Assembly: GCA_963705105.1 (NCBI GenBank)
Contig: CAVPIW010000017.1
Coordinates: 1 to 64,000, forward strand
DNA: 64,000 bases
DNA from: an uncultured Nitrospiraceae bacterium
Lineage (GTDB): Bacteria > Nitrospirota > Thermodesulfovibrionia > Thermodesulfovibrionales > Dissulfurispiraceae
Direction of reading: 5' to 3'
The translations under genes were made by a program, and so were the position numbers. Shown here in pieces: positions 57,662 to 58,033 of the stretch (position 1 is the stretch's first letter; the number at the start of each line of letters is the position of its first letter). Under the pieces are notes generated by a model. That model was given only the letters and a program-made list of their open reading frames with translations, made no database searches and was not told the DNA's origin.

Positions 57662-57793
57662 ATACCTATGCCCGGACGATTTGTTTCGGGCGATGCCGCG
57701 GGCGGAATTCACCGGCGGCATCGCCCTCTTTTCCGTCTAAGACCCCCGTCTTTATCGATTGCAGAACGAAACGAATCCGTGCTTCCAGCACGG

Positions 57794-58033
57794 TTACTTG
57801 GCGCCGCCTCAACCACTCTTGGCAGGCGGTTTCTCTTCGGTGGTGCCTCCAGCACCTTCCTTTTTCGCGCCTCAACCACTCTGGGCCGGTTTCTTCTCTT
57901 CAGTGGCGCTTCCAGCGCCGTCTTTCTTGCCCGCTCAGGCCGACGAGCAGCCGTAGAGCCCGAGGGTCGTGCCGGCCAGAAGACTGGCAATGCCGATTCC
58001 GGCGAGGACCTTCTTGAGATGCTCCTTGTCCAT
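57794..58033 (-). CDS. sbtA: SbtA-type RiPP precursor with three selenocysteine (UGA) codons, 79 aa
   Basis: AGGAGG RBS; MDKEHLKKVLAGIGIASLLAGTTLGLYGCSSA-U-AGKKDGAGSATEEKKPAQSG-U-GAKKEGAGGTTEEKPPAKSG-U-GGAK*; a hairpin follows each UGA. Confidence 0.88.

Follow-up and report, generated by a model that had tools for sequence, protein, structure and literature searches.

What is made from a short gene that has to be read through three in-frame stop codons, and what might the cell gain from its product? The question is raised by a minus-strand reading frame in the window, by which we mean the whole stretch of 64,000 nucleotides that was analysed. The frame runs from an ATG at 58033, with a ribosome-binding site (AGGAGG, 58046-58041) 7 nt 5' of it, to a TAA at 57796-57794. 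Under the standard code translation ends after 32 residues; with UGA read as selenocysteine (Sec, U) it yields 79 residues, and this recoded translation confirms the open reading frame, the UGAs at codons 33, 54 and 75 and the flanking residues that a preliminary description of the DNA had claimed. The gene and its parts are these.

57794..58033, minus strand: sbtA precursor gene, 79 aa, with three UGA-encoded Sec (translated with TGA = U; TIGR04081).
57935..57937, minus strand: UGA codon 33 (U33), in the atypical context S-A-U-A.
57872..57874, minus strand: UGA codon 54 (U54), context S-G-U-G.
57809..57811, minus strand: UGA codon 75 (U75), context S-G-U-G.
57905..57919, minus strand: SECIS-like hairpin 1 (GGCGCT-GGA-AGCGCC), 6 bp with a GGA loop, coding for G-A-G-S-A.
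57842..57856, minus strand: SECIS-like hairpin 2 (GGTGCT-GGA-GGCACC), 6 bp including one G-U pair, GGA loop, coding for G-A-G-G-T.
57777..57793, minus strand: SECIS-like hairpin 3 (CCGTGCT-GGA-AGCACGG), 7 bp with a GGA loop, entirely 3' of the TAA.
55816..57435, minus strand: sbtM, radical SAM/SPASM maturase, 539 aa counted from the first ATG (TIGR04082).

The leader of the 79-residue frame passes the SbtA model TIGR04081 (43.1 bits against a cut-off of 30.5), and the product of the gene that lies 358 nt downstream on the same strand passes the SbtM model TIGR04082 (694 bits against 350) and contains the PF04055 and PF13186 domains. With both cut-offs passed, the link to the SbtA/SbtM family suggested earlier is borne out: membership of the frame in the SbtA family is near-certain, and we hold with high confidence that the cassette combines this family identity with decoding of all three UGAs as Sec. 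In the accessible passages of PMC9204691, SbtA has 'at least two' Sec, a GGUG motif and a thio(seleno)oxazole product, the ring being formed by SbtM at Gly-Cys/Sec with a loss of 4 Da, and a table of PMC13188914 gives two Sec for SbtA; multi-Sec SbtA is therefore already in print. As in the system described in those passages, the precursor adjoins its maturase and there is more than one Sec, with a SECIS after the UGA and SG-U-G cores, a form of the motif that U54 and U75 match. The present locus differs in its three Sec against the two of that table, in the deviating S-A-U-A core at U33, in a lipobox-like leader, in an operator that is common with selenium genes, and in the presence of a second complete cassette in the same genome.

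Is a precursor with three Sec unusual, and does each UGA come with a hairpin of its own? Our sample comprised 28 loci found via SbtM, together with 18 matches to TIGR04081 that came from 11 of the 61 genomes searched. A leader HMM run over these loci gave 33 distinct precursors, including two from this genome, with a false hit (L043) and two duplicates (L010, L048) left out; 12 of the 28 SbtM-found loci had no leader-HMM match, among them L006, which by eye has a Cys-only precursor and is uncounted. The named precursors with the best scores belong to MAGs that carry the label Nitrospiraceae, which makes a host in Nitrospirota probable. There are no Sec in 2 precursors, one in 3, two in 13, three in 13 and four in 2, so that three Sec is the joint commonest state of the family and, because 13 of 33 members carry it, an ordinary one. 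The exact 21-residue period of the UGAs noted before does hold, both UGA-to-UGA distances being 63 nt, but there is nothing special about it, since 16 of 45 U-to-U intervals in the family span 19-22 codons within a full range of 2 to 53. A 63-nt direct repeat (family D6, 76% identity) spans the last two UGA spacings, and Tandem Repeats Finder did not report this unit. SGUG accounts for 37 of the 76 U contexts in the family and SAUA for one. The sbtA gene of the window is, in short, a fairly typical member of a known selenopeptide family.

The hairpins had been described as starting about 15 nt past each UGA with a GGA loop, and all three are present: the stems begin 15 nt after each UGA, and the loops lie at 21, 21 and 22 nt. 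These loops, stems (6-7 bp) and spacings (21-22 nt) fit the bacterial SECIS model as given in the relevant passages of PMC13188914. Folding energies in a 43-nt context are -10.2, -9.4 and -13.5 kcal/mol; taken alone, hairpin 2 reaches -7.2 kcal/mol, which just misses the published cut-off of -7.5, and with its flanks -9.4. Stability as such is unremarkable against 200 shuffles (z of -0.5 to -0.9, with 31-47 of the 200 shuffles as stable). Our geometric rule asks for a stem of at least 5 bp, a loop of 3-5 nt containing G that lies 14-26 nt after the codon, and an energy of -5 kcal/mol or lower; 104 of 3000 sampled genomic TGAs (3.5%) have a hairpin under this rule. Finding hairpins at three of three UGAs would then have a chance of about 4e-5 if they were independent, a figure that is overstated because the repeat units of sbtA are related. 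Hairpin 3, which was said to lie past the stop codon, indeed opens at the first base past the TAA, and it also has a terminator-like score.

Across the 33 precursors, 64 of 68 isolated UGAs have a hairpin behind them. Of the 20 that lie within 5 codons of the stop, 19 do, so that a hairpin past the coding region is a family-wide trait. Where a second UGA comes within 12 codons, the first has a hairpin in 2 of 8 cases; core Cys codons have one in 3 of 11 (internal 0 of 5, terminal 3 of 6) and other codons in 60 of 1430. The earlier claim of one SECIS per UGA thus stands for isolated UGAs and is not strict, because closely followed UGAs have their own hairpin in 2 of 8 cases. Two UGAs that stand 2-12 codons apart seem to rely on a single hairpin 3' of the pair (L028, L031, L034, L036, L042, L009, L044). 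As to whether homologues keep Cys or Sec at the cores, on which the preliminary description had made its case depend, they show U or C there, UGA being aligned with Cys at 11 core Cys codons across the 33 precursors. One locus, L031, has tandem Sec and Cys paralogues, and its Cys copy, which lacks hairpins, is a natural control. Judged from these counts, the putative SECIS hairpins track UGA and mostly vanish after Cys codons.

Pairing is also seen in how the stems vary. For this count we took 58 of the 61 distinct hairpins, omitting three whose loops have 4 nt. Changes on both sides are seen at 7 of 8 pairs, and the covariation score is 0.446 against 0.194 for shuffled sets, a value reached by none of 500 shuffles and by no slid control; we take the score as supportive and attach no probability to it, because the hairpins were preselected for pairing and many are kin. 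The recurring peptides GAG(S/G)T and SAV(S/G)T are the coding content of the hairpins. The comparison shows a repeat unit in sbtA that consists of an (S/G)-U-(G/A) core plus a putative in-frame SECIS, the last SECIS falling in the 3' UTR.

Could most ribosomes nevertheless stop at UGA33 or UGA54, leaving the three-Sec chain a minor product whose length would report selenium supply? Such inefficient readthrough would agree with the need to recode three times in a row, with hairpins that are short and of unremarkable energy, and with the UGAs of some relatives that lack their own hairpin. We nevertheless consider it very improbable, given that the terminal UGA is kept together with its untranslated hairpin in nearly all precursors that have one, including three with a C-terminal Sec, where a UGA precedes the true stop (L005, L023, L038); such conservation implies that the last Sec is under selection.

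Decoding as Sec requires machinery, and selA (594 bits), selB (363 bits), selD (317 bits) and selC (a tRNA-Sec on contig C6) are all in this genome, which is 99.4% complete; a lack of these genes, named at the outset as fatal to the proposal, is not what we find. The selD gene has an in-frame TGA of its own with a downstream hairpin. The second complete sbtA-sbtM cassette (L005/L059; G000:C12:186380-186081, minus strand) encodes a precursor with three Sec, the last of which is the C-terminal residue, its UGA being followed by UAG. Reading that last UGA as the stop was rejected, since an 8-bp hairpin belongs to it at a distance of 20 nt. This second sbtA has neither a lipobox Cys nor an operator directly upstream, and a ferritin-like gene precedes it. 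Elsewhere in the assembly, 23 tRNA genes form an array on contig C4 (G000:C4:10181-12340), and contig C3, 9 kb long with 5 tRNAs, has 67% GC compared with 57% for the genome; both may be foreign DNA or binning contamination.

The N-terminal part of the maturase provides the first indication of what the product may be for. Residues 12-196 of SbtM form, by fold and profile, a BufC/HvfC (PME1)-like peptide-recognition domain. Their structure model (pLDDT 92.8) best matches NGO1945/3DEE (Foldseek E 3.4e-5; VIA Z 12.1, rmsd 3.8, 163 residues aligned), then TglI (Z 10.9) and then other RREs at Z of 7.1 or below. In hhalign, a profile comparison with two BufC-like proteins encoded in MNIO clusters reaches 95.6% at E 1.1e-8, the top Atlas match is an HvfC-family cluster at 0.92, and DUF2063 occurs in 18 of 21 hits hand-picked by length and position among the 150 matches listed; the matches begin about 50 residues into the free partner proteins. 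By direct model searches the SbtM N-terminal sequences give weak hits (HvfC 1 of 21, DUF2063 1 of 21), a sequence alignment against solved structures finds nothing under E 0.36, and Pfam has no model for the sbtA peptide or for the window's SbtM N-terminus. In the text of PMC12668002 available to us, 3DEE is the partner of a thiooxazole-forming MNIO, such partners standing almost always beside MNIOs, and corresponding passages of PMC12452194 link DUF2063/PME1-like partners to precursors with signal peptides. The 3DEE-like fold and this partner role therefore suggest that SbtM unites the partner fold of the captophorins (bufferins, oxazolin, fontiphorin and gonophorin) with a radical SAM enzyme producing a ring of the same kind.

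The resemblance to captophorins extends further. In the published assignments that we could consult, they have a thiooxazole-type ring and repeated cores, and their leaders are signal peptides, some of lipoprotein type, as in about 16% of Buf2 bufferins (PMC12452194, in part). The modified SbtM peptide and 5-thiooxazole Cu-binding peptides have in common an absorbance near 305 nm, according to passages of PMC12668002 and PMC12538549. The partner fold, separate in captophorin systems, is in SbtM fused to the enzyme. That enzyme is a radical SAM/SPASM protein, whereas captophorins use an oxygen-dependent MNIO; their cores contain Cys (EGKCG or folded), in contrast to Sec in SG-U-G here; and the sbtA-sbtM cassette is without a doxX or MNIO gene, no MNIO (DUF692) enzyme being found in the sbtA cluster. 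Metal binding, moreover, is for SbtA a proposal by analogy.

Is the precursor exported? The part of the gene that bears on this is the following.

57947..58033, minus strand: leader, codons 1-29, built like a lipoprotein signal peptide.

The leader has a basic n-region, an uncharged stretch of 27 residues and, as had been claimed, a lipobox-like L-Y-G-C at its end (G-L-Y-G-C29), with Cys at codon 29. It fits a PROSITE-type lipobox pattern; Tyr at the -2 position of a lipobox is atypical. An uncharged stretch of 19-38 residues is present in all 33 SbtA leaders. Gly-Cys at positions 28-29 after the hydrophobic stretch occurs in 9 of the 33, always from a Cys codon and never from UGA, in the lipobox-like contexts VSGC, ISGC, LSGC, VAGC, MSGC, AAGC and LYGC, and many of the other leaders finish, by eye, in small-residue motifs like those cut by signal peptidase I. 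At codon 27 near-identical strains have Gly (two sequencing runs) or Ser (one contig from a third run), so that the motif becomes LGGC or LSGC. Together with the nine leaders that share Gly-Cys at 28-29, these strains make a lipid anchor plausible. The contigs of RNA libraries from four studies cover most or all of sbtA, which is not proof of transcription, of its level or of its ends, and cover sbtM patchily; among the contig differences listed, none touches the UGAs or hairpins of sbtA.

From these leader features we judge it quite likely that SbtA is exported and, with moderate confidence, that it is lipidated at Cys29. Residue +2 after Cys29 is Ser, which under the +2 rule as quoted in PMC13056109, a source seen in part, would not keep the lipoprotein in the inner membrane. 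The DAG-RiPPs, such as DybA, offer a parallel in the same passages: that family, too, is split into lipobox-Cys members and members with an ordinary signal peptide, the same SPI/SPII split being described for chryseobasin-type precursors, and cytoplasmic modification is proposed to precede export. DAG-RiPPs differ in enzyme and modification, and for SbtA lipidation is a prediction. The leader may also be a recognition sequence and nothing more, because it is more conserved than usual signal peptides. The modified peptide would then stay in the cytoplasm as a redox or metal buffer, its leader binding the RRE and the LYGC being incidental. The leader's conservation across phyla (58% mean column identity over 19 leaders) and the weak n-region charge (0 to +3) would agree with such a cytoplasmic buffer. 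We think it quite unlikely, as Cys at 28-29 appears in lipobox-like contexts alone and is never UGA-encoded in the nine cases, and as the family divides between lipobox-like and SPI-like leader ends in the manner described in PMC13056109.

Do the neighbouring genes tell us where the peptide goes? Out of 174 ORFs around sbtA/sbtM loci, 150 were scanned with Pfam (24 antisense shadows and SbtM fragments were dropped), and no third gene is conserved across lineages. Among the 150 no exporter or transporter, peptidase or protease, immunity or metal-resistance family recurs, no copper- or mercury-resistance family is named, and DUF692 has no match. RecQ, GGDEF, Gfo/Idh/MocA, flavin reductase and methyltransferase genes do recur, but within one Desulfobulbaceae-like clade only. 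Without a recurring exporter, the neighbourhood is what one would expect if SbtA takes the general secretion and lipoprotein routes, and it lends no direct support to a metal role. Some loci have sbtM without a detectable upstream precursor (L019, L020, L022, L030) and others sbtA without sbtM within 1.5 kb (L037, L040, L041, L045, L049), so the two genes can be unlinked.

The same survey bears on the idea that the cores are excised as small antimicrobial or signalling peptides. The name 'selenobacteriocin' stands in a table of PMC13188914, in the portion available, and the repeated cores with Lys-rich linkers between them would suit excision. We regard it as very unlikely: the exporter, peptidase or immunity gene that one would look for does not recur, precursor and maturase are often unlinked, and the lipobox-bearing subgroup implies tethering.

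In the window itself, dispersed intergenic repeats of 50-110 nt in both orientations, REP/MITE-like, occupy 53945-60906, and one group of copies separates the two genes of the cassette.

57456..57665, no strand: genome-specific dispersed repeat between sbtA and sbtM (families D1, D3 and D4).

Copies also lie near 54075, 54937, 59939-60149 and 60828, and the repeat between the genes is probably not part of the sbtA-sbtM system. Two secreted-looking proteins at 54200-55829 (plus strand) are convergent with sbtM and have no passing Pfam or NCBIfam match. At 61155-64000 there are genes for exosortase H and the membrane protein associated with it, together with a convergent gene whose surface-protein product matches IPTL-CTERM weakly.

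A further line of evidence comes from the region upstream of sbtA, where we find two candidate elements.

58150..58178, minus strand: sigma-70-type promoter TTGACA-17-(TG)TAGAAT, 11 of 12 consensus matches.
58112..58156, minus strand: candidate LysR-type operator ATAG-N6-CTAT-N16-ATAG-N7-CTAT, a bipartite palindrome whose regulator we infer.

The promoter search upstream of sbtA found one such promoter against a shuffle mean of 0.6. The candidate operator overlaps the -10 element and the inferred start site. Its own 16 of 16 match to the pattern is not counted as evidence, being circular because the pattern was drawn from this very site. In 15 of 32 other sbtA upstream regions the layout beats nearly all shuffles (at most 2 of 100 as high). 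A matrix trained on 12 relatives' sites, chosen for their likeness to the consensus and with the window's site excluded, ranks sbtA first in the genome at 21.4, a partly circular result; second (16.8) comes a site before a rhodanese / double-cubane reductase / activase operon, and third (16.5) one upstream of yedF. Scores of at least 13 are found upstream of yedF in 11 of 30 relatives (the best 30 of 45 genomes over the cut-off), as against 0 of 30 downstream of yedF and 3 of 3504 upstream regions of this genome. The independent evidence for the operator consists of these yedF tests and the tests in relatives. Upstream scores fall below 13 in 18 of 33 sbtA loci, including all three Geobacteraceae loci and the second sbtA of this genome.

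The exact pattern occurs in 18 of 60 relatives, at 21 sites, and its reversed control at none. Seven sites lie before yedF, one before the gene upstream of yedF and two before rhodaneses; single sites precede arsR-selD, a tRNA-like gene with yedE, a double-cubane reductase, a MauE/DoxX-like gene, a phosphonate-type ABC transporter, a TauE-like gene, sbtA, and a 35-residue C-x-x-U-x-x-U peptide preceding another radical SAM gene; one site lies immediately past a LysR gene, and for two no target is evident. The names yedE, arsR, MauE/DoxX, TauE, transglutaminase-like and phosphonate-type ABC were given by reading the sequences, not by model hits. At the site with the 35-residue peptide (L097:1244-1500, G030:C5) the peptide ends in C-R-K-U-S-S-U, and the radical SAM/SPASM gene after it passes no NCBIfam cut-off. 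At L108:1033-1500 (G035:C42) the operator stands before a tRNA-like sequence with an apparent GCA anticodon and a long variable arm, by eye possibly a selC*-type tRNA-Cys, followed by the yedE-like gene.

Which regulator would bind there? Two of the three LysR proteins of this genome pass NF040786 (LysR_Se), one encoded at G000:C6:326423-327295 and the other beside selD, and in 7 genomes an NF040786 gene lies between 65 nt and 9.5 kb from an operator site; the two comparable site-near proteins are closest to the protein on C6, at 51-54% identity. Presence of the model does not discriminate, because it is matched in 61 of 61 relatives. PMC5322559, in the text searched, predicts LysR_Se (the HrsM orthologue) to be a selenium regulator, linked to yedE, yedF and a dehydratase-like/activase pair; the operator likewise stands before yedF, yedE, selD and dehydratase-like/activase genes, and differs in that neither a binding site nor an sbtA target was found in that text. 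One operator half-site resembles the OxyR consensus. We rejected OxyR as the first choice of regulator: no OxyR model is passed by the three LysR proteins (best 115 bits against cut-offs of 329-500), and the operator sites lie upstream of selenium genes. On the strength of these shared upstream sites it is fairly likely that sbtA belongs to a selenium regulon. In keyword passages of the literature we found neither the sbtA-operator link, nor SbtA lipidation, nor the SbtM-PME1 link, any of which may already be in print.

A shared operator of this kind points to selenium supply and not to metal stress, and it counts against a metal reading. Might SbtA then be mainly a selenium sink, store or shuttle, an analogue of the multi-Sec selenoprotein P that parks surplus in the envelope or feeds importers? 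The company kept by the operator (yedF, selD, yedE, rhodaneses, the double-cubane reductase operon and the ABC transporter) would favour it, as would a chain that is little beyond Sec cores, SECIS-coded linkers and G/K/A/S/E spacers. The operator, however, also stands before the second Sec-peptide family, as one would expect if it regulated selenium consumers at large; a radical SAM enzyme reserved for the peptide would be a high price for storage alone; and an aromatic C-Se bond in the oxazole should, we infer, be hard to recycle. Moreover, Cys-only precursors (the second copy of L031, L047 and L006) retain their cores, and since they exist the function does not need selenium. We therefore hold the sink to be unlikely and argue from the Cys-only precursors that SbtA serves for its ring chemistry and not to store selenium, the operator gating a product that is costly in selenium. 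As an observation apart, the Cys-only sbtA of L047 (G028:C251), which has no hairpins, lies directly after a dehydratase-like/activase pair, and its genome also has selA and a Sec-type sbtA at another place.

How could these elements work together? We lean, if slightly, towards a selenium-gated, exported selenooxazole lipoprotein that scavenges soft metals in the manner of captophorins. In such a scheme a LysR-family selenium regulator would bind the operator over the sbtA promoter and so tie transcription to selenium status, and SelB would read each UGA as Sec via its own hairpin. In the cytoplasm SbtM would hold the precursor with its BufC-like N-terminal domain and convert each Sec by oxidation into a 5-selenooxazole, least certainly at U33, which follows an Ala. 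The leader would double as a general-secretion signal, Cys29 would be lipidated and the signal cleaved, so that mature SbtA would be a flexible, membrane-tethered chain of 51 residues with up to three selenooxazoles. These groups may bind soft metals (Cu(I), Hg) or quench oxidants in the envelope, and if they do, the product would be an oxygen-independent, selenium-bearing counterpart of captophorins such as bufferin and oxazolin. The analogy with envelope scavenging is drawn from the accessible parts of PMC11626156, PMC12452194, PMC12668002 and PMC12538549, and on it we rate the chances that SbtA scavenges metals or oxidants in the envelope as about even.

More generally, and more tentatively, one might speak of 'seleno-captophorins'. 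This broader and still rather doubtful reading makes SbtA a multi-selenooxazole lipoprotein under a LysR_Se operator common with yedF, yedE, selD and an unrelated Sec-peptide family, and it has anaerobes arrive at the ring known from oxygen-dependent copper chelators by way of a radical SAM enzyme that bears the same partner domain.

What is less expected in this sbtA is the lipoprotein-like leader and the promoter motif common with selenium-supply genes. As a substrate, the gene is a compact natural case of serial SelB-dependent recoding, with a SECIS-like element after every UGA and one of them past the stop. The chemistry of the SbtA family is known; its role is made testable by the predicted location, the soft-metal model and the candidate operator, which gives the predicted selenium regulator LysR_Se a concrete candidate DNA target. 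If the 'seleno-captophorin' reading were true, SbtA would gain a function, and the selenium regulator a defined operator and regulon.
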